Below, in pieces: positions 6,393 to 24,786 of a stretch of DNA of 64,000 nt. Source of the DNA: an uncultured bacterium (lineage in GTDB: Bacteria > Bacillota_I > Bacilli_A > RF39 > UBA660); assembly GCA_949291455.1 (NCBI GenBank), contig CASEVQ010000001.1, positions 1,703 through 65,702 on the forward strand, read 5' to 3'. Both the position numbers and the translations under genes were made by a program. The first letter of the stretch is position 1, and each line of letters opens with the position of its first letter. The notes below the pieces were generated by a model, which was not told where the DNA came from, made no database searches, and saw only the letters and a list, made by a program, of their open reading frames with translations.

Positions 6393-8333
6393 CTATTTTT
6401 TTATCTTATTTACATTATTATACTTTTTATTTACAAATAAAACTAATGGTACACCTATAATAATAAGTAAAATCTTTGGAAGGTAATTTATATTATTATT
6501 AACGAATGTATTAGGTGGAAGAACAATATCATCATTTAATTCATAAAAAACTTCTATTACATTATCATCAGCATTGTTTGACACAACTAATGGATAATTA
6601 ATTACTTCTTTTAAAGAATAATTGTCAAATTTTTCAAACTTAATATTATCAATTCTTGTTCCAATAATTTGATCGGTTACTATAACTGTTTTACTGTTAT
6701 CAATCTTTCCATTAAAATAATATAATATTTTATAATAATTTGTTTCTTCTTTTAAATATAAAACTTTGATTACATTGTTTTCAACATCGATAGATATTTC
6801 ATTTGTAGATGCAATACCATCTTTATAACCATTTGGTTTATATAAACTTAACCAATTTTCTCCAAAATCATTAACAATATCTTCAGTAGTAACTAATGAT
6901 CCATACTCCCTAAAAACATCTTTAGTTTTTGCTACTAAATTAACGCGTGATATTTCATCCTTGTAATATTCTATATGATAAGAATAAATATTTTTCTCGT
7001 ATACAATATTTAAAACATTATTGTCTTTGTCTATAACAAAATCATTTAAAATAATATTTTCACTAGTATAACCAATAGGCAAATACTTATCTTTCTCTAC
7101 ATTTACTATTCCACCTAGTTCTAAATAATCACTAATAGTTCCAAGTAAATTTTCTTCTGAAATAGAATCTTTATAATAATTTATAGTATATGGATATTTC
7201 TCTTTTTCATAATAAACTTCTGAAGATGAAGACATTACAAGTTTTTGTTCCTGATTATCTTTGTCTTTATATTTTAATACAACTCCTTCATTTAAAATAT
7301 TATTAGTAGCATACCAGCCATTTTCCAAATTATCATTTAACCTTATCTTAAAATTAAAAGATTTTTTTTCATCACTTATTTCACCTAAAGAATAAGTAAC
7401 AACTTTATCATTGACAATTACTCCTTCTCCAGATACATAAGAAAAATCTTCGCCAATAGTATCAATTAATACTGCATCTTTCCCAGCAGAAATCTCTTTA
7501 ATGTCAGTTGCTAATTCTTTTAATACATCTTTAATACCATCAGTTGTAGCATCATAGTAATACTCTTTTCCACTAGCTATACTTTTTAAGATATTTTTTG
7601 CATCCTCACTAGTGTCATAACCAACAGTATATATCTTTATTCCAGCATTTTTAACTCTAGCTATTGACTGAAATAAAAGTTCAGTACTATTAGGTTCCCC
7701 ATCACTTATTATCAATATGTATTTTAAAGAATTATCTTCAACTGAATCTAAATTTTCTTTAGCAAGATCGACTGCTAAATGTAAATTTGTAGCGCCATAT
7801 GGATAATCAAAATCACTAGTATTAAATACTTGATTAGTCCATGAAATTTTGTTTAAAGCATTACTAGAAAAAGTAATTAAATTGATTTTACTAGTTGGAA
7901 TATTTTCTGTTATATCCTTAGAAAAACTTATAGCACCATTAACGGCATTCTCCCATTTATAATTATTAATAGAATCAGTAACCCTACAATATAAATTTTG
8001 ATTATTTATATTAGTAAACTTATTATAAAACAAATCGGAAGATGTTTTTGTTCCATTAGCACAAAGCATGCTACCTGATCTGTCAAAAATAACAGATACA
8101 TAAACATTTTTAGTTGAAGACTCTAGTGTACTTTCCCCTTCTATTACAAACTCTACATTATAAACAAAATCTTCCTCTGTTTTACTTACTTTTTTAGTTA
8201 CTACAATTTCATCATTACTAACACTAACTTCTTCATTCCTTATATCACCACTTTTATAATCTAACGCCAAAACAAAACTAGGTAAAAAAACATAAATAAA
8301 TAAAAAACTTAATAATATTTTTTTTATTTTCAA
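6393..8333 (-). CDS. cell-surface VWA-domain adhesin with three MucBP-like repeats and a non-canonical C-terminal anchor
   Basis: Signal peptide, MIDAS-type motif VIFDRSGSM, and three Y.I.YYKD-type repeats. The C-terminus reads ...VLPPNTFVNNNINYLPK, then a hydrophobic helix, then a basic tail. The stop overlaps the sortase start. Confidence 0.75.
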   Translation of the reverse strand: MKIKKILLSFLFIYVFLPSFVLALDYKSGDIRNEEVSVSNDEIVVTKKVSKTEEDFVYNVEFVIEGESTLESSTKNVYVSVIFDRSGSMLCANGTKTSSDLFYNKFTNINNQNLYCRVTDSINNYKWENAVNGAISFSKDITENIPTSKINLITFSSNALNKISWTNQVFNTSDFDYPYGATNLHLAVDLAKENLDSVEDNSLKYILIISDGEPNSTELLFQSIARVKNAGIKIYTVGYDTSEDAKNILKSIASGKEYYYDATTDGIKDVLKELATDIKEISAGKDAVLIDTIGEDFSYVSGEGVIVNDKVVTYSLGEISDEKKSFNFKIRLNDNLENGWYATNNILNEGVVLKYKDKDNQEQKLVMSSSSEVYYEKEKYPYTINYYKDSISEENLLGTISDYLELGGIVNVEKDKYLPIGYTSENIILNDFVIDKDNNVLNIVYEKNIYSYHIEYYKDEISRVNLVAKTKDVFREYGSLVTTEDIVNDFGENWLSLYKPNGYKDGIASTNEISIDVENNVIKVLYLKEETNYYKILYYFNGKIDNSKTVIVTDQIIGTRIDNIKFEKFDNYSLKEVINYPLVVSNNADDNVIEVFYELNDDIVLPPNTFVNNNINYLPKILLIIIGVPLVLFVNKKYNNVNKIKK

Positions 8334-9085: not shown

Positions 9086-10183
9086 TTATGAATAAAATAA
9101 AATTTCTTTAATATTTTTATCCAAAACAATTAATTCTTTAATATTCTTAACAATACAAATAAATTTTTGACTATCCCTTTCATCAACATTTAACATACAT
9201 AATAACTTTTTCTTTAATATAATTTCACTTACACAATTAGATCTACAACAATTACAAAAATATTGAATATAAACTTTATTTTTATTATTTTTTGTTAGAT
9301 GACAAGTTTTCTTAATTTTCATTAAACTACCACATGTACATCTAACTTTAAAAATTCCTTTGCTTTTTCGATAATTTTTTATTTTTTTTTGTACAGATAA
9401 ATATTTATTAATATTAACAATAGGAATATGCCTCCCTTTAGTTTCAAAGTATCTATCACTATTTATTCCATAGCGAACATTACCAATATAATTAGGATTT
9501 AATAAAAGAAGCTTTATCGTCTTATAAGACCATTTACATTTATTTTTAGTCAAAATATTATCATTATTTAAAATATTGGCAATTTCCGTATATGAATACC
9601 CTTTTAAAAATAAATCAAAAACTTTATTAACAATTATTGATTCTTCTTTATTTACTTTTTGAATTTTTTTTCCTTTTTCTTTAATATAACCATAACTTAC
9701 ATTTTTTGATGCAATAGTATAGCCTTCTTTTACTTTCCTTTCTAATCCCAATTTGACTCTTTCAACAATGTTTTCCCGTTCAAATTCAGCAAAAATACCT
9801 ATTATTTTTATAAACATTCTCCCTGTAGATGTCTTAGTATCAATTGACTCGTTTAAAGAATTAAAACTACAATTATATTTATTAAAAATATCTATAAGAT
9901 CGATTAAATCTTTTGTTGATCTTGTTAACCTATCTATTTTATAAACTAAAACATTATTAACTTTATTTTCTTTTATATCATCAATTAATCGTCTTAATTC
10001 TTTACGATCAACAATATTTTTTCCACTTATACCTTCATCAATATAAACAGAAAAAACATTCCAATCCTTTATACTGGCATAAGATTTTAATTTTTCTTCT
10101 TGAGCTCTAATTGAATAACCATTATTTGCCTGTTCTTCAGTTGAAACTCTAATATAAATACCTGTGTTAATCATATTCATCAA
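9086..10183 (-). CDS. serine recombinase (element 2, 365 aa)
   Basis: GIYIRVSTEEQ catalytic Ser motif, VYKIDRLTRS, and GIFAEFERENIVERVK. Also a recombinase domain and a Cys-rich C-terminal region. The ATG is 38 bp from the crossover site. Confidence 0.9.
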   Translation of the reverse strand: MMNMINTGIYIRVSTEEQANNGYSIRAQEEKLKSYASIKDWNVFSVYIDEGISGKNIVDRKELRRLIDDIKENKVNNVLVYKIDRLTRSTKDLIDLIDIFNKYNCSFNSLNESIDTKTSTGRMFIKIIGIFAEFERENIVERVKLGLERKVKEGYTIASKNVSYGYIKEKGKKIQKVNKEESIIVNKVFDLFLKGYSYTEIANILNNDNILTKNKCKWSYKTIKLLLLNPNYIGNVRYGINSDRYFETKGRHIPIVNINKYLSVQKKIKNYRKSKGIFKVRCTCGSLMKIKKTCHLTKNNKNKVYIQYFCNCCRSNCVSEIILKKKLLCMLNVDERDSQKFICIVKNIKELIVLDKNIKEILFYS

Positions 10184-11203: not shown

Positions 11204-11749
11204 TTAAGCAATGGACTTTAAAGTTCCAATAATAACTAAATAATGATTTTTATTTAACAAATTACATGTAAACAAAGTTACGGTCGTATCATTTATATTG
11301 CGTTTAATTGAAATTCTCCCATCTTTATAATCATTATAAATATTAGAAACAACATATATATATTTCTTATCACAATACTCTAAAATTATTTCATCACCTA
11401 TTGATAAATGCACTAAATCATTAAAATAAGCTACTGAACCACTACCAGAATGCCCACCTAAAACAACATTACCATTATTTTCATTAGGCATATTAGAATA
11501 TTTCATTATTTGCACATTCATATCTATATTATTCTTAATACTATTTTTATCGTATATATCATTATGCAAATTAATTTTAGGAATTATTAAAGATATAATT
11601 GGTTTTTCTAATACTTTATTTCCATTATTAATAAATTCTATATCAGACATAGTACGTGAATTAGATAAATTTACAAATGATAAATTTATTATTAAATAAA
11701 AAACAAATAAAATGAATATTACTTTATTTACTATTGATAACATAAACAA
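11204..11749 (-). CDS. small sortase
   Basis: Signal anchor, His in VVLGGHSGSG and Cys in VTLFTCN. No Arg downstream of the Cys. Overlaps the end of the adhesin gene. Confidence 0.7.
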   Translation of the reverse strand: MFMLSIVNKVIFILFVFYLIINLSFVNLSNSRTMSDIEFINNGNKVLEKPIISLIIPKINLHNDIYDKNSIKNNIDMNVQIMKYSNMPNENNGNVVLGGHSGSGSVAYFNDLVHLSIGDEIILEYCDKKYIYVVSNIYNDYKDGRISIKRNINDTTVTLFTCNLLNKNHYLVIIGTLKSIA

Positions 11750-13205
11750 CTCCAGACAATATAGATAAAATTAATAATAAAATAAAATCATAGAACTTAG
11801 ATTCATCTTCAATATAAGCATCAGGTACATCTATTTCAATATCATAAAGAGGTAAAGTTATACTAACATTCGATCTTTCATCAACAATAATAGTTATATC
11901 ATCAACTTTATCATAGTTAGTAGTAGTATTAACTTGTTTTATTGTATACTTACCATAAGGTAAAATCACTTCTAAAATTCCAAATTCATCTGTAATTCCA
12001 GTATAAATTAATTTATTATTACAATCATAAAAATCAAAAGTAATTCCACTTTCAACTTTCATAGAAACATTAGCATAATCTTCATTTGAACCATAATATT
12101 TAATAATTTTAATTTTTGACTTTATAACGTCGTTTTTTAAGTTTAACTCTACATTTAAGTTATCGCTATCAATGTCTACAAAATATTCATTTCTATCAAT
12201 ATAATATCCTTTACCAGCTTCTACTTCTTTGATTCTATATTTTCCATATGAAAGATTTTCCAAAACACCAATATTATTTTCCCCAATAATAATATCACCT
12301 ATAAATTTATTATCCATATCAAATACCGAATATTTAGCCCCTATTAAACTTGCTTCTCCACTAGGTATTACAGAATTAGAATCACTATCTAATTTCATAA
12401 TTTTAATACTACCAGACTCTACATAAATATTAACCTCAAATTGTAAAAAATCAACATTTCCTCTTTCAATAACACTTTGAGTACCAAAACTATAAAAAAA
12501 CTCCGTGGAATATGATAAACTATCGTCGTAATTTGCCAATATTATTTTTTTATTTCCTTCTTCTGAAGAATTTATAATTAATTTATTATCTACAATTTTT
12601 GCATCAATGTCTGACTCGATAATTTTAAATTTATTTAATTGCAAACTATTATCAAATAATTCAACACTATCATTAATACTCATTGTAATTTCATTAGGAA
12701 TACTTGGTATCAAATTATGACTACTTACCAAACTTTCAATTTCTTCTATTTCACTATTATATGGATAAATAATATTTTTATCATTAACATTATCAATCCA
12801 ATTAAAAGAATGATTTGGATCAACAGTTCTCCAAATTAACATCTGAGTTATAGAAATCCATTTTTCTTCAAGATGATTTTTATAACCATAACCATAATAT
12901 GCTAAAAGTTTCAATTTTTCCCATTGTTCTTTAGTTAAATTAAAAGCACTATCATATTCAATAAAACCTGTATAATTAGTTCCATCAATTAAAGTAGCAA
13001 ATGGCTCTATACAATAAGCAATATTATTATTTAAAACATTTCTTATAGCTTTTGCATTTCTAAAATAATAATAATGCCCATCATACTTAACATAAGAAAT
13101 AGAATTTAAACTTTCTGAAGAAGAAAATATTGCCTCTTTTGCTAAAACTTTATCAGATAAAAAAAAGCTAATTAAAAATACTATTATTAATGTAATTTTT
13201 TTCAT
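11724..13205 (-). CDS. surface adhesin: thioester (TQXA-type) domain plus two SpaA/Cna-B-like domains, non-canonical anchor
   Basis: Start placed at MKKITLIIV (RBS AAGGGAG). Thioester-domain motifs NNIAYCIEP and SITQMLIW are present. Two repeats of the G..Y.V.D...YGKY.IKEV....GY type follow. The C-terminus reads ...DVPDAYIEDESKFYDF, then a hydrophobic helix, then INSK. Confidence 0.7.
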   Translation of the reverse strand: MKKITLIIVFLISFFLSDKVLAKEAIFSSSESLNSISYVKYDGHYYYFRNAKAIRNVLNNNIAYCIEPFATLIDGTNYTGFIEYDSAFNLTKEQWEKLKLLAYYGYGYKNHLEEKWISITQMLIWRTVDPNHSFNWIDNVNDKNIIYPYNSEIEEIESLVSSHNLIPSIPNEITMSINDSVELFDNSLQLNKFKIIESDIDAKIVDNKLIINSSEEGNKKIILANYDDSLSYSTEFFYSFGTQSVIERGNVDFLQFEVNIYVESGSIKIMKLDSDSNSVIPSGEASLIGAKYSVFDMDNKFIGDIIIGENNIGVLENLSYGKYRIKEVEAGKGYYIDRNEYFVDIDSDNLNVELNLKNDVIKSKIKIIKYYGSNEDYANVSMKVESGITFDFYDCNNKLIYTGITDEFGILEVILPYGKYTIKQVNTTTNYDKVDDITIIVDERSNVSITLPLYDIEIDVPDAYIEDESKFYDFILLLILSILSGVVYVINSK

Positions 13206-13258
13206 ATAATCTCCCTTACCATCACTAATAGTATTTTTATTCATATAATTTAAAAATC

Positions 13259-13804
13259 CTAAATATTATTAAAATATTCAATAACACCTTCTGTTATGCT
13301 AATTGCAAGAGTTTCCTGATAATTTTTATCTTGCAATAACTTTCTTTCTTGATAATTAGATAAAAAACCACATTCTATAAGTACTCCAGGAGTATTAATA
13401 TATTTATACATATAAAGATTTGTAGTTGTTATTTCTCTATTTGTCGAAGTGTTTTTTTTAAGACTTTCTTGAATGCTTGATGCTAAAGTTTCATTAAATT
13501 TATTACCTTCATAATATAAAACTTCTGCACCTTTATAATATGAATTTTTATACCAATTAACATGAATAGACAAATAAATATCAGTTTTTAAATAATTCTC
13601 ATCTATCATTTTAATTCTTCGATATAAATCTCCTCTTTTTTTATGTGCATCATAAACACTAGAATGGTCTATATCACTATCTCTAGTTAAAAATACAGTT
13701 GCTCCTTTCAAAGATAACTTTTCTTCTAATACTTTAGCAATTTCTAAATTAATGTCTTTCTCATAAATGTTTCCGTATACTACACCAGGATCACGTCCTC
13801 CATG
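13259..13804 (-). pseudogene. cwlD: N-acetylmuramoyl-L-alanine amidase CwlD-like, 3' fragment
   Basis: Encodes H|GGRDPGVVYGNIYEKDINLEIAKVLEEKLSLKGATVFLTRDSD...YLSIHVN...GVLIECGFLSN...YQETLAISITEGVIEYF, an Amidase_3/CwlD-like sequence. The N-terminal anchor and the DAGH motif are missing here and are found at 24643-24786. Confidence 0.85.
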
Positions 13805-13857
13805 GCTTGCACCTTTTAACCCCAGAAACCATATTCTTTTTTATTATAGGTTATATT

Positions 13858-15462
13858 TTATAAATCAAAATTCCATTCAATCCTAATATCTCTTGTGTTG
13901 ATATCTTTATCTAATGCACCAACATATATTTTTTCTATAAACTCTTCCACTATTATTCTAGTTAGTTTTTTAATATGTTTATATTTTTTTAATATGCTTT
14001 CTATATCTTTTGAATTTTCTTTTCTAGTTTCAGTTTCATCAAGTTGTTTTTCTATATCTTCAAGTCTTGTTTGATAAGATTCAACATCTTTTGTATATTC
14101 CTCTCTTAACATTTGAAAATCATCTTCTGATATAATACCTTTCATCTTATCCATATAAAGATTTTTAAAGTACAACTTGCTTTCATTTAACTTCTTTTCA
14201 AGATTAGCTTTCTCTTTATTTAAATTAGTAATTAATGTATCTTGTCTATTTTGTCTTTCTAATGTTTCATTAAATTCTTCTTTTAGTAATTTTTGATTAC
14301 ATTTTTTTAATAAACCATTTATGGCATCAAGTACATACTTTTCTATAACATCATATCTTATCGATCTATTATTATCACAGACATGATATTTTTTATTTCC
14401 TTTACATTGTAGATATGCTCGTTTTACTCTTGTTCCATTTTCACCTTTTACATTACATTGATTTCTTGCAAATATTTTTCCACATTCTGCACAATAGACT
14501 TTTGCACTTAATATATGTATATTACCATCTTTTGTTGGTCTATGGTGTTTCTTTAGTCTTTTTTGTACTAAATACCAAGTTTCACTATCAATAATAGGCT
14601 CGTGAGCATTTTCAGTAATACTCCATTCTGATTCAGGAACTTTTTTTGCCTTATGATTTTTATAACTAATGTTTGTTCTTTTGCCTTGTACTAAATTACC
14701 CATATAGGTTTCATTTCTAAGCATTGTTGCTATTGTGTCTGGAGTCCATATTCCAGTAGTATCATAATCAAAATTACAACATACAAAATTACTTCCAATA
14801 GATTTTTTATAAAGAGATGGACATAATATTTTTCTTTCATTTAAACTAGCACATATCTTATGATAACCAAGTCCATTTTTATATTTTTCAAAAATTTCTC
14901 TAACAATAGGTGCAACATTTTGATCAATAATAAGTTTATGTTTATCATTGGAGTCTTTCATATATCCATAAGGAGCAAAACTCCCCATAAATAAACCATC
15001 ATCTCTTTTATTCTTTAATGACTTTTTAACATTGTTAGATAAATCTTCTAAATACCATTCATTAACAAGTCCATTGATTTGTCTTGACTTTTTGTTTGAT
15101 TCATTGTTGGTATCAGCATTATCCACTATACTTACAAATCTAACTCCCCATTCAATAAACTTATTATGTAAATATCTTTCTATTACTTCCATATCTCTTG
15201 AAAATCTACTTTGAGTTTTACACAGTACAATATTTATTCTTCCATTTTCACAATCATTAATTAATCTATTAAAATCTGGCCTTTCAACTCCTGCTCCAGA
15301 ATAATCATCATCTGAATAAATATCTACAACTTCCCAATCTTGATCCAAAGCATATTTTAAAAGCATACTTTTTTGATTAGCGATTGATTCACTATCATCA
15401 TTTTTGTTTTTCTTATATCTATCTTCATCAGATAGCCTACAATATACACCTACCTTTTCCAT
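13858..15462 (-). CDS. large serine recombinase (element 3)
   Basis: YCRLSDEDRYKKNKNDDSESIANQ, LCKTQSRFSRDME and NKKSRQINGLVNEWYLED. A zinc-ribbon region (CAECGKIF...LQCKGNKKYHVCDN) and a coiled coil follow. Same architecture and long shared blocks with 1590-3203. Confidence 0.92.
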   Translation of the reverse strand: MEKVGVYCRLSDEDRYKKNKNDDSESIANQKSMLLKYALDQDWEVVDIYSDDDYSGAGVERPDFNRLINDCENGRINIVLCKTQSRFSRDMEVIERYLHNKFIEWGVRFVSIVDNADTNNESNKKSRQINGLVNEWYLEDLSNNVKKSLKNKRDDGLFMGSFAPYGYMKDSNDKHKLIIDQNVAPIVREIFEKYKNGLGYHKICASLNERKILCPSLYKKSIGSNFVCCNFDYDTTGIWTPDTIATMLRNETYMGNLVQGKRTNISYKNHKAKKVPESEWSITENAHEPIIDSETWYLVQKRLKKHHRPTKDGNIHILSAKVYCAECGKIFARNQCNVKGENGTRVKRAYLQCKGNKKYHVCDNNRSIRYDVIEKYVLDAINGLLKKCNQKLLKEEFNETLERQNRQDTLITNLNKEKANLEKKLNESKLYFKNLYMDKMKGIISEDDFQMLREEYTKDVESYQTRLEDIEKQLDETETRKENSKDIESILKKYKHIKKLTRIIVEEFIEKIYVGALDKDINTRDIRIEWNFDL

Positions 15463-15529
15463 TTACTACAACACCTCAATTCCGATTAGTTGTAGCAAAT
15501 ATAAATCTACAAAGAGATTATATAACATT

Positions 15530-15673
15530 TTAAGAATTATTTAAAGCTACGCTGTCCTCTTCTTCTGCTAATATAACTCGTAGTAATTTTTTTGCAATAA
15601 TATCTTTTAAATCAGTTTCTTCGATTACTTTATTATCTTTTGTTACATATATTACATTATAATTTACCTTCAT
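15530..15673 (-). CDS. small conserved protein upstream of the recombinase (candidate directionality/regulatory factor)
   Basis: Not in the ORF track. MKVNYNVIYVTKDNKVIEETDLKDIIAKKLLRVILAEEEDSVALNNS, with a strong RBS AGGGGGG 9 nt upstream. Homologous to 1378-1518. Confidence 0.65.
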   Translation of the reverse strand: MKVNYNVIYVTKDNKVIEETDLKDIIAKKLLRVILAEEEDSVALNNS

Positions 15674-15733
15674 TTTATCTATACCCCCCTTTGTTATTCT
15701 CTATAAAGAATATCCTCCTATTTTAATCATATA

Positions 15734-16231
15734 TCAATCCTCCTTAAACTCTTTTAACAAATTTTCCATATATGCTTGTTCATCTGGACTAGCTGGATCA
15801 TCTACACAAACTTCTGGATGTTCCATCCAATATGGAATTAATTCATTATGAGTCTTATTATTTTTCCTTGTATATTTTTTCCTTTTATCTTGGTAATTTT
15901 TTACTATGTATTTATCCTCTTTTTTTTCTAATATCTTAGAATTTTCTTTACTTACTATTTCGTTATTTAAATAAATTCTTCTTTGCCTATTAACAAATTT
16001 AACTTCAATATATTTTTTCCTTTTTAATTTATTAATAGAGTTAGATATTGTTTTTTCTTTAACACTTAATGTATTAGTAAAGTAACTATTACTGGCGTAG
16101 CAATACTCATTATTATTTGATAGTAAATTAATCACTCCATAAACTAACTTATCTGTTTGGGAACAAGTTTGGTCATTTAATATTATTCTCGGTACAGCTA
16201 TAAAATACCTTATAAAAGCCATATATCCCAT
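15734..16231 (-). CDS. winged-helix (HTH_36-like) replication/initiator-type protein
   Basis: The pattern ...KLVYGVINLLSNNNEYCYASNSYFTNTLSVKEKTISNSINKLKRKKYIEV is typical of plasmid/ICE Rep-type wHTH proteins. Confidence 0.5.
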   Translation of the reverse strand: MGYMAFIRYFIAVPRIILNDQTCSQTDKLVYGVINLLSNNNEYCYASNSYFTNTLSVKEKTISNSINKLKRKKYIEVKFVNRQRRIYLNNEIVSKENSKILEKKEDKYIVKNYQDKRKKYTRKNNKTHNELIPYWMEHPEVCVDDPASPDEQAYMENLLKEFKED

Positions 16232-16536
16232 CCTTCAAATTATAGTTTCTGGTGTTTAAGGGTGCAATATGCCTATGAAGAAATAAGTTTCCATTGGTAA
16301 TAGTTTGAGCTATAACATACATATTTTTAACCCTTAATACTTAATTTGTTCTTTGAAATAAGTTATAGTTCAAACTTGTATTCATCTTATATTTCTATAA
16401 GATAGGTTCTGATATAAGCCTTAATATCTTATCGAGCCTCTTATAACTAGCGTTCATTGTTACTTTTCTAGTTAAGTGTTATTGTGTACATTCCGTTTGA
16501 GTATTCTTTATATATTAGATATATTAGATATTTTAA

Positions 16537-16734
16537 TTATTCTAATAATTCAAGACTTTTTCTCAAATCTATATTTGTGATGTTTACTACTCTCTGAATC
16601 TCTCCTACATTTATATCTGTAAGTAATCTTTCAAATCCTTTAGTATAAATATATGAGTAGATCAATTTCGTTTCCATTGGAATTTTTTTATCTTTCCAAA
16701 TACTATCTGCAACTTCTAGGTATCTAATCTTCAT
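16537..16734 (-). CDS. small wHTH-like protein
   Basis: 65-codon ORF (...ETKLIYSYIYTKG...), divergent from the XRE gene. Confidence 0.4.
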   Translation of the reverse strand: MKIRYLEVADSIWKDKKIPMETKLIYSYIYTKGFERLLTDINVGEIQRVVNITNIDLRKSLELLE

Positions 16735-16841
16735 TCATAGGTTTCCTCCTTTCTGTTAATGTTCTTTGATGTAAAGCTCATCAAATTAAATATAGTCTAC
16801 CATCTTATTTTGAGCTTATCAACACTATAATTACAATTTCG

Positions 16842-16870
16842 TTGACTTTCTCATCATATTGTGATATGGT
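16842..16870 (+). promoter_or_regulatory. candidate sigma-A promoter of the XRE regulator gene
   Basis: TTGACT, a 17-nt spacer, then TATGGT preceded by TGTGA. Located 37 nt upstream of ATG 16907. Confidence 0.4.
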
Positions 16871-16906
16871 TACATAAGTTGAAACGAAGAAAGGTGGTTA
16901 TGATTT

Positions 16907-17512
16907 ATGAAGAAAACTACTACAGAGCTAGGAAAAGTAATAGCAGAAGCAAGAGAAAAACTAGGTATTTCACAAAGAGAATTATCTCGTAGAGCAAATA
17001 TGGATTGTGCCGAAGTTTCTCGTATTGAAGCAGGTAAGAGATTAAAACCTAATGTTTTATATTTAAAAGGTATTGCTGAAACATTAAATTTAAGTATGGT
17101 TGATTTAATGAAACTTGCTGAATATGATGATATAGATATAAATTGGGGAAAAGATTTTATTGATAGAAGATCAACAGCAGATTATCAAAGACAAATCAAA
17201 AGTTATGAGCAATTTTATTCTGATGCTTTAGAACATATTGAAGAAAAAAGAAAAGTTGATTTTTCAGTTAAAGGTGGAATTGCTGATTTAATTGATAAGA
17301 TAGAACTTGCTAAAATAGAAAAGAAAGAAATATCAAATGATGAAATATTAGAAAGATTAAAAGAAATAATTGTTTTAATAAGACCTAATTTAGAAAAATT
17401 AGATAAATCAAAATACCCATCATTTGATAAAGGGGTTTTCCCTAAAATGGAAATAAAGAATAATGTTAAATATAATTTCATTTCTGGAAAAATTATAGAT
17501 AAGGAAGAATAA
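16907..17512 (+). CDS. XRE-family HTH transcriptional regulator with a ~130-aa C-terminal extension
   Basis: HTH_3 motif LGKVIAEAREKLGISQRELSRRANMDCAEVSRIEAGKR. RBS is AAAGGTGG. Confidence 0.8.
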   Translation: MKKTTTELGKVIAEAREKLGISQRELSRRANMDCAEVSRIEAGKRLKPNVLYLKGIAETLNLSMVDLMKLAEYDDIDINWGKDFIDRRSTADYQRQIKSYEQFYSDALEHIEEKRKVDFSVKGGIADLIDKIELAKIEKKEISNDEILERLKEIIVLIRPNLEKLDKSKYPSFDKGVFPKMEIKNNVKYNFISGKIIDKEE

Positions 17513-17647
17513 AATTACGAACACGTTTTGCGAGTTTACTCGTGAAAGTGAGAAAAGTAATTTTATTCATCCATACTTTTGCAAGGCAAAAGAAAAAATA
17601 ATCTTTTTGGCTTTTCGTTAGATTAGTCATTAAGATTATTTTTATAT

Positions 17648-17714
17648 AAAAGATACGCACCACAAATTAATATTTATGTAATATAAATATAATGCGTATC
17701 TTTTCTTTTTATTT
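17648..17714 (+). terminator. long hairpin terminator
   Basis: 12-bp stem AAAAGATACGCA/TGCGTATCTTTT enclosing an inner 8-bp stem ATATTTAT/ATAAATAT. Followed by a T-rich tract. Confidence 0.6.
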
Positions 17715-17859
17715 AAACTTGATTCAAATAAAAAGGCAACAATACCACTTACAAAGTTTGCGGTATGTTGCTTAAATGGGGTTTCAAAAGCCTTCGCCCA
17801 CTGTTATTGGCTTTGCCAATAGCATAGTGGGTTACTATATCGTCTGATATAGTTTTTAA

Positions 17860-17907
17860 AGCGAAAATTCATTAGTTATGTAATTTCTTTTGAATTTTCG
17901 CTTTTTT
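17860..17907. terminator. hairpin terminator (T-tract on the plus strand; probably bidirectional, ending the giant-gene operon)
   Basis: 12-bp stem AGCGAAAATTCA/TGAATTTTCGCT followed by TTTTT. Lies directly after the stop of the 17911-18117 ORF on the other strand. Confidence 0.55.
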
Positions 17908-17910
17908 AGA

Positions 17911-18117
17911 TTATTTGATTAATTTTTTACTTATACCATTCGATTCTAAATTTTGTTCTGTATCTTGTATTAATTTACTAAGATATTCTAATTTTTGCTC
18001 ATTTGTTAAATTTTGGTTAAAATTTGGTTCATTTATGGAATTTGATACTTGTTCTTGTTCAACGACAGATTCTTCCTTATTTAAAATTTCTGGTCCTTTT
18101 AAATCATTATTTTCCAT
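17911..18117 (-). CDS. small acidic protein translationally coupled to the giant ORF
   Basis: Start placed at MENNDLKG. Its ATG lies within the last codons of the giant gene (AAACATGGAAAATAA) and is preceded by GAGGAAGG. Confidence 0.5.
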   Translation of the reverse strand: MENNDLKGPEILNKEESVVEQEQVSNSINEPNFNQNLTNEQKLEYLSKLIQDTEQNLESNGISKKLIK

Positions 18118-21100
18118 GTTTAACACCTTCCTCTTTACCAATACCATTTTCGCTTAACATTGATTCTAATTCATCAGTTCTTTGCAAACTTGAACTTGCC
18201 CAAGAATTTATAAAACTTTGAATATCTTCATTTCTTAAATTTCCTCTAGTACTATGTCTAATAGTTCTTAAAACTTCTTGTGGAGTATAAGTTTGTAATA
18301 AAACACCTATTGCTTCATCACAATGAAATTCTTTTAAATCATAAATTGCATAAGTTTCTTGTAGTGATGATGCAAACTTTATTAATTGCTTTGAAACACT
18401 ATATTGTAAAAATTCTGGATTTAATCGTGCTTTGTTAACAAATCTAGTTCTGTCAAGTGCATCTGCATCTTTTAATACTTCAGCCATTTGTCTTACTCTT
18501 GGTATTTGATCATCAGTAATTCCATTTTTTCGAGCCATTGAAACAAATAATTCATCAACATTAGCAACATTTCTTGGTGTTTCATGAAATTCAATTATAG
18601 TACTAATTATTGATAAATCTTCTGGAGAACATTTATCTTTTAATTTCTCAATAGCAATTTTCGCACTTAATTCAGCATGTTCTTCATAAGCATCAGTTTT
18701 TCTACCTATATCATGATATTTAGCAGATAGCATTATTAAATCTAAATCATGTTTATCTTGAACAACAGATTGTCCAATTAATGTAGAGTACAACAAAACA
18801 TTTTTTATATGTCTTTGTCCATGAACTTTTAATCTGCCATTTACATTTTCTTCTTTGATTTCATTTTCATACATAACTAGTGAAGTAGATAATCCACTAT
18901 CGGTTAATGCACTCATAACATTAGAAGAAGATAATTGTGTATCAAGAATTGCTTGATCAATGGTAGAAATATCACTTTTTTCAAATTGTCTTTCATTACC
19001 ATCACTATTATTAACCATAACTAAGGTTGAATCAATACTTATTTTAAACGATGATTTTAATTTGTTAATATCAATTAATGCTTCTTCAATATTGAAAGAA
19101 GGTAGTGATTGTCCAAGTCCATGTTGAGTATTATTATATTTTTCTTGCTCATTTCTAACCGCTTTTTCTAATTCATAAATACACTCAATTGCAATATTAG
19201 GCTCTGCTGTATATATTTTTTCTATTGTTTCTATAATTTCACCAACAATACTATCTGATAATTGATCATGTTTTGGAAAATACTTTTCAGATATATTAAG
19301 ATGATATTCTCTATTACCTGCATAATTACTTTCATAATCTGATATAATATCTTTTATTAATTTTGAGTCTAAAGTAGTTTTAAATTCATTTAATCTATTT
19401 TGAATTATTTCAAGTTGAGATTTTGCTATTTTTTCTCTTTCAACAACCATAATAGGTAAAGTTTTCTTAACACCATCTACTTCAATAGAAAAGTTAGATG
19501 CTGCTTTTTTAACAGTTTCCCATTGTTTCATTGCTTCTGGATCGCTTAGTCTATCTTCAAAATTATCTACAAAGTAAACTATATAAGATGGTTGTTTTTT
19601 AAACATAGCATCTCCAGAAATACTTCTTCTTTCCCAGACTGTTTCGTTATGTGTATGTCTAGTATAACCTAAAACATCATCTGGTAATAAGTACATTGAT
19701 GAATACATTGAAAATATTTGATAACTATCTTCGGTTGATGCAGAACATAAATCATAAGGTCCAGATAATTGTAATGCACCTAACTCATAATCTGTAAACC
19801 CTAAACAACAATATTTTACTTCTGCAGTACCTAAATTTTTTTCACCTACATAACTACAACAACAACCATGTGATGCTATTTTATCGACATTCCAACTAGC
19901 ATAGTAATCGTCTGGTTCTTCCATACTTGTATAAGCGCCAACAGAAGTTATCATCATTCTACATTTCTTTTTTCCATCACGACCAGCTGCTAAATAAATA
20001 TCAAAATCCTGCTCATCATTTATATTACTAATAACTTTATCTTCTTGAAGTGGTTTAGTAAAACTTTTATTAAATTCTTGAGTAAATAAGTATTTTAACC
20101 TCGTTTCATAAGTAACCATTAAATCTGGTTTAACTACAAATTCAGGGTTAATATTTTCAACATAATATTTTAAAACGTCTAGATTATTTAAACCAATAAT
20201 TTTTTTCATATTCTCAAGCAAAATAAATTCTGATCTACTTTTTTCATCTAGAGAATTTATTGTACTGCTTTCTAAACTTTTACCATATAAATTTACTAAA
20301 TTAATAGCTGTTGCTAAATCAATACCAAAAGTCTTTTCAAAATAAGCAGTTTTTAAACTACCTAGAGTATTTCTTTCTATAAGCATATTTATATAATTTT
20401 CTCTTACAGAATCTATATTTTTTAATTCTTCAAAACTAGAAATATCTAAATGATTATTTGTCATTAATAAATACATTAAATTTTCTTTTTCTTCTGATGA
20501 TAATTCTTTACCATTTATTGATGAAAGTAAATTAGCATATTCAGAAGAATTTATATTATCTAAAGATTTTTCTAAAATAGGAATCCACTCTAAATTATCC
20601 TTATATTTATCTACTAATTCACAAATTATTTTAGCTCTAGAACTATTAGGAGATAATTTTAATATTTTTTCTTGTAACTTTGGATAACAAGATAGTATTT
20701 CAACTTGAGCTTTTGTAAAATGACTAGTTATTTCATCTGACAAAAACCTTGGGTTTACTGTCTTAGAAATTTCATCATTATTAGCATATAATGTTTTTGC
20801 CTTTTGTAAAAAATCAATAGACTTAGTATCTAAGTAATTAGACCATTTAGTTTCATCAACAGATAAGAATAATTGAAGCAATTGATTTTGATTTAAACGA
20901 TTAAGCTTTAATCCAGAATTTATTGCTATATCAATCAATTTTAACATCTCATCTGAATTTGTTATTTCAACATTTAATAAGAAGTTAGGATGATTAACAA
21001 TGTATCTTGCCATGATATCATAATTAGAGCACATCTTACTTCCCCAGTTAGTTAATACAAATTCACTTGTTACCTCATAGCCATAAGATATGGCTAATCT

Positions 21101-23050
21101 ACATAATTCATCGTATTTTTTTTTATCTGCAACACTACATGATTCGATTAAATCCGGTTTTAAAGGTATGGCTTTTTTCATAATATCATAACTACTATTA
21201 TAGGCAGTTGTTGTTGAATAACTATAACCATTTCCCATTTTTTCAACATCTGGCAAGAATCCTGCATCAGTAGAAATTTTACATATTTCATCATATGCTT
21301 CACAAGGTTTAGTAAAAAATCCAACACGATCTAATAATTGTACTCTTTCTAAATAACTTGGATAGGTTCTAACCATTAACTTTGCAGTTTCAGATCCGTA
21401 ACCAAATATTTCATCATCAATTTTGGGAACATAACCACCTTGAATAGCAAGTAAACCTAATTCATCAATTTCTTTTCTTAATAAGTCTTTACTTAAAATA
21501 GTTATATATTCTGGATTTTTAGATATAATTTCTTTCATTGTTTCAAAGTTACCATTAAACAAATTAATAATATCCTTTGTTTGATAACCTTTGTTGATCA
21601 AATAATTATAAAGGTTAATACTATAATTATTACCATATTGAATACTATTATTTAATCGTTGTCCTTTATCTAATTGATACATTATTGCAGTTTCTGTGTA
21701 CAATAATTTATTTTTTCTGTAGCTGTCTCCTCTATATTGATCTATAATAGTACCATTAAATCCATTTTCGATAGCAATCTTTAATAGATCTTCTTGATTT
21801 GGAGTGTCCTCTCTAATTATATTTATCAATTCAGGATTTTCTTGCACCAAAATTTTCATAATTTCAAAGCTATCAGCTAACCTAGGATTATCTTCCACAT
21901 CTTTTAATGTAGGTATGTAACCATTATCAAGTGACAAACGAACTAAATCAAAAAATTCATTTTGTGGAATTTCTAAAGAATAACCACCTTTTAAAGGCCT
22001 AGTTTCAATATACTTAATTGCTTCAGGTCTTTGAAGTATTAATGCTTGCATTAATTTTGGACTTTTCTTAACATATTCACTATTTTGAACATCACTTAAA
22101 TTTGGAACATATCCCATGCATAAAGCAAGTTCATCAATTTGTTCTCTTTGCCTTTTATATATTTTGCAATATTTAACCATTTCTGGATTTTGTTTAACAA
22201 CTTTAGAGAAAAGAAGCAGATTACTAGTTATTAAATAATTATTTAAAATTTCTTCTGGAACATACCCTTGTTTAAATGCTTCAATCCAAAATTGTTCAAA
22301 GGCAGGACTATCAGGATACAATTCTAAAAGCAAATCTGGTCTTTCACTTATAATCTTTTGCTGTGCTTTTGCATTACCAGAAAAAATCTGACTACGAATA
22401 ACTTCTGGTGTAAGTTCTATAGTATCAAGTATTTTATCAACCAAATTTGGATTATTTAATAATTTTGTTTTACTTAAAAAATTCAACGATGGAACAAATC
22501 CCCAATCTAAGGCTTTTATAAACAATTTTTCATTTGAAAAAATACTCATGTAACTATAACTTTCCATCATTTCATTAGTTGGTCTATATCCTTTATCAAC
22601 TAATTTCCCCATAACCTCAGCACTAGAAAATGACCTAAGATGACTATTAATATAATCACTCGATGGGGTATAGCCATTGTCTAAAGCCATCGATACTAAT
22701 TTATCAGATTCCCAATCAGATTCCCAAATATTTTGCTCTATAAAACTTTCAACAATTTTAGGATTTGATTTAATTGCAATTTCAACAAAATGATTAGCTC
22801 TATGATAATGGGATTGTTTCATCTGTATTAAAAATTCTGGATTATTTGAAACCTCTTGCCCAACTCTATCTAAAATCCTATCAACATATTTTTGATTAGA
22901 CAAACCAAAATTTTGATCTCTGTCATTATCAATTAAAAATAATTTATCATAATCTCTTCGCTCTATTAATTGAATAATTTGATTATATCTTTTTCTATCT
23001 TTGCCAGTAATAATATTTAATAAATTATTATTCATTCCAAACAGCTCCAT
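18107..23050 (-). CDS. giant orphan protein (1,647 aa): N-terminal repeat array, Cys-rich central domain, C-terminal HD phosphohydrolase domain
   Basis: Uninterrupted 4.9-kb ORF. HD signature at aa ~1406-1537: H..H, KYHDIGR, EEHAELSA, EFHE, LKDADALDRTRF. About 12 repeats carry an A[LI]..G[YF].P motif. The real start may be the ATG at 23035, which has a GGAG 9 nt upstream. Confidence 0.85.
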   Translation of the reverse strand: MELFGMNNNLLNIITGKDRKRYNQIIQLIERRDYDKLFLIDNDRDQNFGLSNQKYVDRILDRVGQEVSNNPEFLIQMKQSHYHRANHFVEIAIKSNPKIVESFIEQNIWESDWESDKLVSMALDNGYTPSSDYINSHLRSFSSAEVMGKLVDKGYRPTNEMMESYSYMSIFSNEKLFIKALDWGFVPSLNFLSKTKLLNNPNLVDKILDTIELTPEVIRSQIFSGNAKAQQKIISERPDLLLELYPDSPAFEQFWIEAFKQGYVPEEILNNYLITSNLLLFSKVVKQNPEMVKYCKIYKRQREQIDELALCMGYVPNLSDVQNSEYVKKSPKLMQALILQRPEAIKYIETRPLKGGYSLEIPQNEFFDLVRLSLDNGYIPTLKDVEDNPRLADSFEIMKILVQENPELINIIREDTPNQEDLLKIAIENGFNGTIIDQYRGDSYRKNKLLYTETAIMYQLDKGQRLNNSIQYGNNYSINLYNYLINKGYQTKDIINLFNGNFETMKEIISKNPEYITILSKDLLRKEIDELGLLAIQGGYVPKIDDEIFGYGSETAKLMVRTYPSYLERVQLLDRVGFFTKPCEAYDEICKISTDAGFLPDVEKMGNGYSYSTTTAYNSSYDIMKKAIPLKPDLIESCSVADKKKYDELCRLAISYGYEVTSEFVLTNWGSKMCSNYDIMARYIVNHPNFLLNVEITNSDEMLKLIDIAINSGLKLNRLNQNQLLQLFLSVDETKWSNYLDTKSIDFLQKAKTLYANNDEISKTVNPRFLSDEITSHFTKAQVEILSCYPKLQEKILKLSPNSSRAKIICELVDKYKDNLEWIPILEKSLDNINSSEYANLLSSINGKELSSEEKENLMYLLMTNNHLDISSFEELKNIDSVRENYINMLIERNTLGSLKTAYFEKTFGIDLATAINLVNLYGKSLESSTINSLDEKSRSEFILLENMKKIIGLNNLDVLKYYVENINPEFVVKPDLMVTYETRLKYLFTQEFNKSFTKPLQEDKVISNINDEQDFDIYLAAGRDGKKKCRMMITSVGAYTSMEEPDDYYASWNVDKIASHGCCCSYVGEKNLGTAEVKYCCLGFTDYELGALQLSGPYDLCSASTEDSYQIFSMYSSMYLLPDDVLGYTRHTHNETVWERRSISGDAMFKKQPSYIVYFVDNFEDRLSDPEAMKQWETVKKAASNFSIEVDGVKKTLPIMVVEREKIAKSQLEIIQNRLNEFKTTLDSKLIKDIISDYESNYAGNREYHLNISEKYFPKHDQLSDSIVGEIIETIEKIYTAEPNIAIECIYELEKAVRNEQEKYNNTQHGLGQSLPSFNIEEALIDINKLKSSFKISIDSTLVMVNNSDGNERQFEKSDISTIDQAILDTQLSSSNVMSALTDSGLSTSLVMYENEIKEENVNGRLKVHGQRHIKNVLLYSTLIGQSVVQDKHDLDLIMLSAKYHDIGRKTDAYEEHAELSAKIAIEKLKDKCSPEDLSIISTIIEFHETPRNVANVDELFVSMARKNGITDDQIPRVRQMAEVLKDADALDRTRFVNKARLNPEFLQYSVSKQLIKFASSLQETYAIYDLKEFHCDEAIGVLLQTYTPQEVLRTIRHSTRGNLRNEDIQSFINSWASSSLQRTDELESMLSENGIGKEEGVKHGK

Positions 23051-23099
23051 AATATTTGTTTTCTTTAATATAAAACCTAATATCTATTTTATATAATTA

Positions 23100-23141
23100 T
23101 ATCATACTTTTTAATTTTTTTATCATACTTTTTAATTTTTT
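23100..23141. repeat. perfect 21-bp tandem direct repeat (2 copies) upstream of the giant gene
   Basis: TATCATACTTTTTAATTTTTT occurs at 23100-23120 and again at 23121-23141. Confidence 0.9.
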
Positions 23142-23162
23142 TTGTTCATTATCTCTGTAATC

Positions 23163-23750
23163 TTATAAACTCATACCCATATCATCGTTTTTATCTATTT
23201 CATCATCATGTTCTTCATAATCATAGATATTATAATTGCCTTCGTATTCATCGTTATATAAAGGTGTTCTGATAGTTCTATATTGAACTGGTACATTAGC
23301 ATATTCAAATAATTCATCTTCTCTTTGTGAGCCTTTAGCAACATCTTTTACATCTAACATTTTAAAGTCTTTATTATCATAATATTGTTTAACTTCTTCT
23401 TCAGCATGATCCTTAATATATTCAGCACCAATTTGTAATATTTTTCTAAAGAATTGTTTAATTGATTTAATAACTCTTTGTATCTTATCATTTAATTTGT
23501 TATTTTCTTTTTCAAGTTGATTATTTTTATATTCTAATACTTGGACTTCTCGTTTGATATTTTTATTCTCATTTTCAAGACTTTTATAACCACTAGCATA
23601 ACTATTAATTTCATTAAATGCTTCGTTTATTTTAAGTTGTAATTCTATAACTTTTTTAGATGCTTTAACTATTTTATTCATAGTATCAAAAGTATCTTTA
23701 TTAACTATAACTTGATTTTTATTAAATGGTATATTTTTAGTAGTTTTCAT
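23163..23750 (-). CDS. coiled-coil protein (likely detached C-terminal part of the Mob protein)
   Basis: ATGA overlap with the relaxase ORF. Long heptad-like region NENKNIKREVQVLEYKNNQLEKENNKLNDKIQ and an acidic tail. Confidence 0.5.
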   Translation of the reverse strand: MKTTKNIPFNKNQVIVNKDTFDTMNKIVKASKKVIELQLKINEAFNEINSYASGYKSLENENKNIKREVQVLEYKNNQLEKENNKLNDKIQRVIKSIKQFFRKILQIGAEYIKDHAEEEVKQYYDNKDFKMLDVKDVAKGSQREDELFEYANVPVQYRTIRTPLYNDEYEGNYNIYDYEEHDDEIDKNDDMGMSL

Positions 23751-24504
23751 TTTTCATCAAATTCATTAATTGCTTTATCAAGTCTATTATTTCTAACATT
23801 TAAGTTTTCTTCTAATTTTCTATTTATCTTTTTATAATCTTTGATTTTAATATGTTTTCTATCGCTACCTTTAATACCTCTTTCTAAATCATACCCTTTA
23901 CTTACGAATCTTGCATGATATTTATCTTGTAATTCTGATAAATGGATTTTATCTCTAATATATTGTTTTTTAGAAATAGTAAATCTTTCAGTATTAGTTC
24001 TTTTATCAATCTTTTTAATAAGTGGAACAACAACACAATGAATATGTGGTGTTTTTTCATCAAAATGGATGGTTGCGTGTAAAACCTGTTCTTTTGTATA
24101 ACCTAAATCTTCATAAACAAATTCCATACAAATGTCAGCCCAATCTTTAATATCCTCTCTTGTCATATCTTTAAAAAATTCATTAGTAGCAGTAAATAAT
24201 AATTCATCTGCAACAACATTATTTGATTTATCTAGCATTTGTTTAAATGTCTTTTTTCTATTTTCTTGTTCAGTTTTCATTCTTTCTTCGTGTTTTTTTT
24301 TATAATTTTTTACTACATTATAAAACCCCTTAACATATTTATCTGATAAGGGAACAAGTTCTATATTATCTTTACTTCTTTCTATATCTATATCTGGATT
24401 AGATTATAAGCTTTTTTCTCTCTCTTATTATGTGATCCAATTTGTGCTAAATCATTGATAGTCATTATTGGTTCACTTCTAAATATTGCATAATTTAAAT
24501 TCAT
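23747..24504 (-). pseudogene. MobV-family (Pre/Mob) relaxase, frameshifted
   Basis: ATG 24504 (RBS GAGAGG) gives MNLNYAIFRSEPIMTINDLAQIGSHNKREKKAYN, then a stop after 6 more codons. The family-typical continuation SNPDIDIERSKDNIEL...IHFDEKTPHIHCVVVPL (motif HxDE..PHxH) is in the -1 frame from about 24405. Confidence 0.75.
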
Positions 24505-24642
24505 ATATCTACCTCTCTTTCTATTTTTAAGCATAATAAAAATACTTCGTTAAAAAGTATTTGCTTTGTTTATTATTATTTATATAGATTATTATTTGCT
24601 ACAACTAGTTATATTTACATTGGGTTTATTCGTACTTTGGTG

Positions 24643-24786
24643 TCCAGCATCAACAAATATAACTTTACCAAATAATGGAAATTCATCAATATGTGAAATA
24701 GCAACTGATTTATCAATAATTAAAATAATTAAAAATAAAATAACAATTAAAAAAAATTTAAATTTAATTTTTAACATAAATATCAT
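24643..24786 (-). pseudogene. cwlD: CwlD-like amidase, 5' fragment (signal anchor plus DAG(H))
   Basis: MIFMLKIKFKFFLIVILFLIILIIDKSVAISHIDEFPLFGKVIFVDAG(H), after which the frame enters element sequence (QSTNKPNV...). Confidence 0.8.

Follow-up and report, generated by a model that had tools for sequence, protein, structure and literature searches.

What does a very large predicted protein do when it combines helical repeats, a central domain without a named family and a C-terminal HD domain, and when its gene travels on a mobile element? The question is raised by a gene on the minus strand of a 64,000-nucleotide stretch of DNA (the window; positions 1,703 to 65,702 of contig CASEVQ010000001.1, assembly GCA_949291455.1) from an uncultured RF39 bacterium of the Bacilli, with a GC content of 23-32%. 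An earlier note, made from the sequence alone, had called this gene an orphan, divided its product into a repeat array, a Cys-rich block and an HD phosphohydrolase, and likened the layout to anti-phage or abortive infection (Abi) systems or to a toxin. The three-part anatomy is borne out, with all motif strings at the residues given and the DNA coordinates of the three segments correctly calculated; the orphan status is not, since 138 close homologues exist and the central domain recurs in more than 600 clusters. The large gene and a small open reading frame (ORF) downstream of it make up a 5.2-kb cassette that is self-contained, with its own promoter and a probable terminator. It spreads horizontally, often as cargo of integrative mobile elements, among gut Bacilli/Bacillota that are spore-forming and very AT-rich. 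As for function, the reading we tentatively favour, as possible rather than probable, is a single-polypeptide conflict module serving either defence against phages and other mobile genetic elements (MGEs) or addiction to the element that carries it. The parts of the cassette are as follows, with residues numbered in the frame as first called.

23036..23150, minus strand: promoter and leader of the cassette, from an upstream alignment of loci with unrelated flanks.
18107..23035, minus strand: large coding sequence from the corrected start M6, 1,642 aa plus stop, based on homologues, Shine-Dalgarno (SD) sequence and alignment.
22769..23035, minus strand: N-terminal helical segment, aa 6-94, with helices at aa 9-95 in the AlphaFold2 (AF2) model.
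20816..22768, minus strand: α-solenoid, aa 95-745, about 12-14 repeats of about 55 aa with the consensus YSKEEYDELCRLAIDNGYVPSLEDILNNEKLNSNYELMKKIIKKNPELIKSVEITSRK, from profiles and AF2.
20039..20815, minus strand: helical segment "mid1", aa 746-1004, conserved alongside the core in many superfamily members.
19271..20038, minus strand: family-defining core, aa 1005-1260, from profile searches, alignments and substitution rates (dN/dS).
18866..19270, minus strand: helical linker "mid2", aa 1261-1395, from AF2 and superfamily comparison.
18371..18865, minus strand: HD phosphohydrolase domain, aa 1396-1560, from Pfam, alignment, AF2 and Foldseek.
18110..18370, minus strand: C-terminal helical tail, aa 1561-1647, from AF2 and superfamily comparison.
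17911..18117, minus strand: small ORF, 68 aa, pI 4.5, from tblastn, SD sequence and overlap.
17725..17905, minus strand: structured 3' region of four hairpins (minimum free energy -54.4 kcal/mol, z = -7.3).

The large ORF was found as first described, with 1,647 codons at 18107..23050. Its real start is placed at M6, position 23035, because the homologues begin there and the SD sequence is conserved; the true product has 1,642 aa. The SD sequence and start, GGAGnnGTTTnAAT-ATG-AAT-AAT, are kept in an upstream alignment of ten other loci. The protein (~189 kDa, pI 5.1) is predicted to be cytoplasmic: it has no transmembrane (TM) segment (maximum KD19 0.93), and its N-terminus is not signal-like. 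A motif scan found no P-loop, HExxH or CxxC, and both the Walker A motif [AG]xxxxGK[ST] and any NTPase Pfam match, which would mark a STAND/Avs-type protein, are absent. The motif, hydropathy and Pfam checks thus uphold the earlier statement that NTPase, protease and secretion motifs are lacking. These results bear on the idea of a polymorphic toxin that is secreted or delivered by contact, the small ORF encoding its immunity protein. The large size, the C-terminal hydrolase domain and the small downstream ORF would suit such a toxin, but a signal peptide and a TM segment are missing, Pfam shows no LXG, WXG or Rhs/RHS domain, no neighbourhood surveyed contains secretion genes, and the C-terminus is conserved rather than polymorphic. 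A delivered toxin is highly improbable on this evidence.

The boundaries of the cassette are set by comparison between loci. In BLASTN, the DNA common to the loci is limited to window positions ~17,905-23,150, which cover the two genes and their promoter. This interval is 90% identical to its counterparts in L006 and L013 despite unrelated flanks, and gene order in 18 loci shows no synteny kept around the large gene. Upstream, an extended -10 element, ATGATATAAT, is conserved across loci with unrelated flanks; in the window a perfect 21-bp tandem duplication (AAAAAATTAAAAAGTATGATA twice, ~23098-23139, minus strand) lies over it, and other loci have a single copy. Downstream, the last of the four hairpins is followed by a T-run; the region is richer in GC than the sequence around it and is also present in L006. 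The hairpins are probably one or more terminators; they could alternatively be a small structured RNA. An Rfam scan across the island, including this region, gave no match.

The small ORF begins with the ATG at 18117, preceded by a strong SD sequence, AAGAGGAAGG, and overlaps the large gene by 11 nt. With its pI of 4.5, this agrees with the translational coupling to a small acidic protein described at the outset, although the product has 68 aa, not 69. Its conserved helix, LTNEQKLEYLSKLIQ, gave a tblastn match in 17 of the 19 loci searched, and the small ORF accompanies the large gene in almost all close-family loci. It has no match in Pfam, NCBIfam or PADLOC.

Such a pair resembles a toxin-antitoxin (TA) addiction module, in which a large nuclease or phosphodiesterase toxin, restrained by a labile 68-aa acidic antitoxin, would stabilise its carrier. 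Tight coupling, retention of the pair, MGE association and what looks like an intact HD active site are consistent with this. The arrangement departs from type II TA systems in other respects: adjacency and overlap are present, but the 1,642-aa candidate matches no toxin family, and its 190-kDa size and 650-aa repeat array lie far beyond the range of known type II toxins. No DNA-binding domain matches the small protein, its gene lies downstream of the large one, many copies have no MGE nearby, and in the window the cassette is intact even though the relaxase of its carrier is dead. A TA-like role is quite unlikely.

A search among 5.8 billion proteins yielded the 138 homologues, and the 120 listed are nearly all full-length (~1,600-1,650 aa) with 60-93% identity. 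None of the homologues in any source searched is a named protein. The gene occurs in twelve GTDB species representatives, mostly gut metagenome-assembled genomes (MAGs) labelled "uncultured Bacilli", and one Bacillota MAG carries a homologue at 46% identity. All cassette loci have 22-31% GC, and the genes neighbouring the cassette include the sporulation genes SpoIVA and SpoVIF, with cwlD in the window. Nei-Gojobori dN/dS values, with pairs involving L010 left out, are 0.19-0.29 for the repeats, 0.06-0.14 for the core and 0.15-0.35 for the HD domain. Purifying selection acts throughout the large protein, and the repeats evolve faster.

The central core is the part that defines the family. Within the close family the most conserved stretch is aa 1018-1162, and the motifs of the core read GAY..WN..HGxC[TC]S..LGF..YDxS..TRHxHNExVxER..PxYIVY...YxxNxxGNR. 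An exhaustive search of 1.84 billion cluster representatives with a hidden Markov model (HMM) of the core retrieved 602 clusters, defined at 50% identity, at E <=1e-3, and 386 at <=1e-10. The domain itself spans ~250 aa and is found in proteins from ~250 to 3,700 aa long. A 25-member diverse alignment leaves D1100, E1136 and P1154 invariant, and A1039, Y1040, W1053, H1061, A1076, G1084, F1085, T1130, R1131, N1135, E1140, R1141 and Y1156 near-invariant. A 40-member full-length alignment extends this conservation to the helical segment before the core and to a Y..NN..G(C/N)R motif after it. The strings quoted for a Cys-rich block are present at aa 1060 and 1128, and seven Cys lie at aa 1030-1102, five of them invariant within the close family. 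Superfamily-wide, only the C1064 position is mostly retained; because the cysteines vary in this way, Cys-richness is a close-family trait and does not stand as the defining chemistry.

No library recognises this domain. As a single sequence or as a close-family profile, the core matched nothing in Pfam, NCBIfam or the PDB sequences. Profiles from the 25-member and 40-member alignments found no relative either, the full-length profile matching only designed helical repeats in the PDB. Scanning 25 diverse cores and 40 HD-less full-length relatives one by one against Pfam returned nothing recurrent, and PADLOC holds no relative of the core. By these sequence methods, the core appears to be an unannotated superfamily of more than 600 clusters with no known relative. 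Structure prediction followed by Foldseek, which the earlier note had proposed as a check, answered in part: it recovered an HD/phosphodiesterase (PDE) fold and a generic solenoid and left the core unmodelled, with a predicted local distance difference test (pLDDT) below 35. In the model of aa 760-1647, built from a 24-sequence family alignment (60-93% identity), the core has pLDDT 23-32 over aa 1030-1154. Its well-modelled C-terminal edge is a β-α-β-hairpin-β, which suggests an α/β domain.

Several assignments of the core were considered. Motif resemblance (HG..., NExV, TRH) brought up two enzyme types: an H-Y-E ADP-ribosyltransferase, which was rejected on an hhalign probability of <=0.1% against the PARP1 catalytic domain, and a diadenylate cyclase (DAC), rejected on the same value against the CdaA DAC domain. 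Each comparator was a single sequence, which makes this a weak test. One core member matched TnsA_N of Tn7 at E = 0.0028, which was treated as chance; a PD-(D/E)xK nuclease reading ("PYD ... ExVxER"), which draws on this lone weak match, may still apply to the core. Most "new" domains prove to be divergent known folds, and it is rather doubtful that the core represents something categorically new. Also rather doubtful is a bolder proposal, that the ~500-aa unit of mid1 and core is a new enzyme class, with a new or unrecognisably divergent fold, that defines previously overlooked, lineage-restricted mobile conflict systems of AT-rich gut Firmicutes with new nucleotide or nucleic-acid chemistry, the HD domain reversing or completing the reaction and the acidic peptide inhibiting it. 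Short superfamily versions occur in L023-L027, where two ORFs, of 290 aa and 409-412 aa, overlap and a third of 84-85 aa comes after them. These versions have neither repeats nor an HD domain and may represent split genes or else the core module in minimal form.

The C-terminal HD domain is the one part that belongs to a known family. Its motifs are located at aa 1410-1537. Pfam HD (PF01966) gives 23.1 bits for the full protein and 27.1 bits for the segment taken alone, above the cutoff of 22, and H1414, H1446-D1447, H1458, H1489, D1528, D1533 and R1536 are invariant in a 16-sequence superfamily alignment. The signature had been described as complete, and it is: the strings are present, the Pfam threshold is passed and the ligands do not vary. 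To judge from the residues, the bimetal ligand set is complete and the domain looks catalytically competent. AF2 gives pLDDT ~80-95 over aa 1400-1620 and an all-helical HD/PDE fold, and Foldseek with the C-terminal model matched PDE5 and the HD hydrolase 2pq7 (probability 0.99, E 0.014 or weaker; the query is multidomain). The top PDB match of the HD profile is the HD-GYP c-di-GMP phosphodiesterase PmGH (4mcw, E = 2.8e-6), followed by 2pq7, 3dto and the cGAMP phosphodiesterase V-cGAP3 (5z7c) and, more weakly, by the HD domains of Cas10 and Cas3.

The likeness to these enzymes has limits. The domain shares the H...HD...H...H...D ligand set, the HDxGR motif and the helical fold with HD-GYP and other HD phosphodiesterases. 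Its E-[FY]-H-E motif at aa 1486-1490 occupies what we take to be the position of HHE in HD-GYP enzymes. The HD-GYP motif HHExxDGxGYP is not present; the sequence reads IEFHETPRNVAN, with no DG..GYP, and only the N-terminal half of the domain aligns to 4mcw. The protein shares only ~45-95 alignable residues with 4mcw, 5z7c and 2pq7, and its HD domain makes up just the C-terminal 10% of 1,642 aa. An HD domain is detectable in ~50 of ~160 superfamily representatives examined; since ~two thirds go without, the HD domain counts as an accessory that is optional for the core module. In some relatives two HD-like domains follow the core in tandem, the first of them degenerate. In the P0125-P0130 group the HD dyad of this first domain is lost (e.g. 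KYKQCSYMDG), and this points to a regulatory pseudo-enzyme domain; P0154 has lost its dyad too (KYYESAK).

The N-terminal array was described as about twelve copies of a helical module, and the copies are true repeats. All 12 quoted motifs were located, at aa 122-709, with spacings of 28, 30, 78 and then 51-63 aa. Plain self-BLASTP of the large protein reveals no repeats. Comparison by hhalign among slices of the 24-sequence family alignment gave probabilities of up to 97% between repeat slices, and three non-repeat control slices were missing from the 45 top-scoring pairs. An HMM of the repeat unit found 10 strong and 4 weak copies over aa 93-697, some of them outside the training set. By these profile comparisons the repeats can be regarded as genuine. 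The AF2 model of aa 1-830 is an all-helical solenoid (mean pLDDT 86.8, and mostly 85-96 over aa 95-745), and Foldseek against the PDB returned weak, generic HEAT/importin-type matches (E 0.015 or weaker).

The closest named comparison for the array is DUF4116, a helical repeat with a similar hydrophobic and glycine pattern that has itself been modelled as an α-solenoid (PMC8078820). The unit here differs in its length of ~55 aa and its A[LI]xxG[YF]xP plus NPE signature. DUF4116 (PF13475) scores 14.1 bits (E = 0.035) on the N-terminus of the window protein and 19-22 bits in three distant superfamily members, all below the gathering score of 24.9. An artificial fourfold consensus repeat reached 36 bits, but it also matched 52 other families, some of them unrelated and similarly strong. 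The earlier picture of a repeat sensor joined to an HD effector is incomplete: the core is the most constrained part, and the HD domain is often missing in the superfamily.

The contexts of the cassette show what it travels with. MGE genes lie beside or near it in ~10 of ~24 distinct contexts, a stronger mobile-element association than could be seen from the window alone. A serine recombinase and a MobV relaxase are near it in the window and in L008, which is the same island; MobV stands beside it in L028 and L032, and a serine recombinase in L009 and L031. In L029 the cassette lies between TnpV and a tyrosine integrase/Xis/sigma-like module. A tyrosine integrase is near in L015 and L006, and TrwB in L002 and L009. 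The neighbourhood survey of homologues that the earlier note had suggested confirmed the mobile association; an association with defence islands was not seen. A tblastn search with the core against sequenced phages and plasmids gave no match, and none of the close family was found among IMG/VR viral contigs.

These contexts also allow an anti-defence role for the MGE, in which an HD-GYP-like phosphodiesterase would destroy the cyclic-oligonucleotide signals of CBASS, type III CRISPR or Pycsar systems, or would shield incoming DNA. The four loci in which MobV genes adjoin the cassette (window, L008, L028 and L032) and an HD domain nearest to cGAMP and c-di-GMP phosphodiesterases fit this idea. 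The signal-degrading anti-defence proteins known to us are small, which counts against it. So do the two thirds of relatives without an HD domain, the absence of the close family from viral contigs and of the core from sequenced phages and plasmids, and the many chromosomal copies without nearby MGE genes. Anti-defence is very doubtful as the role of the cassette.

A physiological role in nucleotide signalling or house-cleaning would explain other features. The core would make or modify a nucleotide-derived molecule and the HD domain would hydrolyse it, with the solenoid as a scaffold for regulation and mobility as an incidental trait; such opposed activities within a single chain are known from RelA/SpoT, GlnD and GGDEF/HD-GYP proteins. 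The nearest solved HD relatives are HD-GYP c-di-GMP and cGAMP phosphodiesterases, the core-HD fusion is recurrent but optional, with a second, degenerate HD in some relatives, and purifying selection is very strong. About half of the contexts look purely chromosomal, and the cassette in L004, and the locus L022 of the distant relative P0161, lie near Ham1/NUDIX/CYTH/nucleotidase genes. The comparison of loci speaks the other way: there is zero synteny between species, a near-identical cassette sits amid unrelated flanks, and recombinases and relaxases repeatedly adjoin it. The hhalign comparison of the core profile with a single DAC cyclase sequence found nothing, Pfam scans show no nucleotidyltransferase, GGDEF or RSH motif, and GYP is absent. 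A physiological signalling or house-cleaning enzyme is rather unlikely.

The conflict module remains our preferred reading, and its parts can be given provisional roles. The solenoid may bind a ligand, either a macromolecule or a nucleotide. Catalysis would fall mainly to the core, with H1061, D1100, R1131, N1135, E1136, E1140 and R1141 as candidate residues, and the HD domain would assist it as a phosphodiesterase or nuclease that acts on the same nucleotide-containing substrate. The small protein, acidic and helical, would bind the large one and restrain or tune it, and translational coupling would fix the stoichiometry of the two. In being a big cytoplasmic, MGE-borne protein with a repeat array and a hydrolase-type domain, the product resembles Avs/STAND-like and large Abi proteins. 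Unlike these, it has no NTPase or P-loop, no PADLOC match and no defence-island context, and its most conserved part is an unassigned domain, not a known switch or effector.

Several observations weigh against a conflict role. The functional readings draw on context and architecture only. About half of the contexts have no MGE gene within 10 kb and look chromosomal, no recognised defence genes occur in the annotated neighbourhoods, and PADLOC-DB v2 returned no family for either the large protein or the small ORF. No region shows dN/dS >1 at this resolution, whereas many defence sensors do. No sequence library assigns a catalytic activity to the core, where AF2 also failed; the HD domain, lacking in about two thirds of the examined representatives, is not a universal effector; and the small ORFs of distant subfamilies are not detectably homologous.

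In the window, the cassette is carried by an element whose parts, with a neighbouring region, are listed below.

13802..24639, minus strand: Tn4451-like carrier, ~10.8 kb, from domain matches and junctions in cwlD.
13858-15462: large serine recombinase with Resolvase, Recombinase, Zn_ribbon_recom and DUF4368 domains.
15734-16231: gene of an HTH_36 protein of the carrier.
16907-17512, plus strand: divergent XRE regulator gene.
~23163-24560, minus strand: MobV (Mob_Pre) relaxase pseudogene, from comparison with L008.
1590-3203 (plus strand), 9086-10183, 6393-8333 and 11204-13244 (all minus strand): recombinase/adhesin region.

A mobilisable element with an XRE gene had been proposed, and the XRE gene does lie within this Tn4451-like carrier. 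The large serine recombinase, Mob_Pre and the junctions in cwlD place it with the integrative and mobilisable elements of the Tn4451 family. Tn4451 and Tn4453 consist of the TnpX serine recombinase, the TnpZ MobV relaxase and cargo (PMC5704250). Like them, the carrier has a DUF4368-tailed serine recombinase, a Mob_Pre relaxase and a single cargo module, and TnpV adjoins another cassette copy. Unlike them, it has this cassette as cargo and not catP/catD, its relaxase is broken, and it is inserted in cwlD. The window relaxase is frameshifted twice and split over three frames; the near-identical island in L008 has an intact ORF of 457-468 codons, and a 195-aa "coiled-coil" ORF at 23163-23750 is the C-terminal part of MobV. 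The carrier is an integrative, formerly mobilisable, decayed element.

The insertion lies in a cwlD-like germination amidase gene, inside the codons for DAGH|GGRDPG, with junctions at 13,802-13,810 and 24,640-24,651 and the two parts of cwlD at 13259-13804 and 24640-24786. With cwlD split and the gene of the large serine recombinase at the element edge, the arrangement is that of developmentally excised gene-intervening elements; skin, SPβ and gin are such elements of sporulation genes (PMC5595907, PMC4191935). The literature found on them does not mention cwlD as a target. The window contains two more serine recombinase genes, of which one is full-length and carries a DUF4368 tail and the other is truncated. 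They flank clustered genes for three products, a VWA protein, a sortase-like protein and a pilin-like protein of the SpaA/thioester-domain type, which suggests that extra mobile or adhesin islands adjoin the studied one. A second giant ORF (59072-63979, minus strand, 1,635 aa) was considered as a paralogue and rejected; it encodes a GH94 glycoside phosphorylase/cyclic-glucan-type enzyme.

The known HD family covers only ~10% of the large protein. The locus exposes a completely unannotated superfamily: its more than 600 clusters (50% identity) come from bacteria of human and animal guts, and its proteins reach ~3,700 aa. The most conserved domain of this superfamily has no match in Pfam, NCBIfam, PADLOC or the PDB, yet it rides several kinds of mobile element as a compact two-gene cassette. 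The defined cassette, the candidate catalytic residues and the partner peptide provide material for tests. If the system serves in conflict, bacterial immunity would gain a new effector or sensor chemistry, in a lineage that is poorly studied and mostly uncultured; if it serves in nucleotide signalling, MGEs would be spreading a new signalling module.

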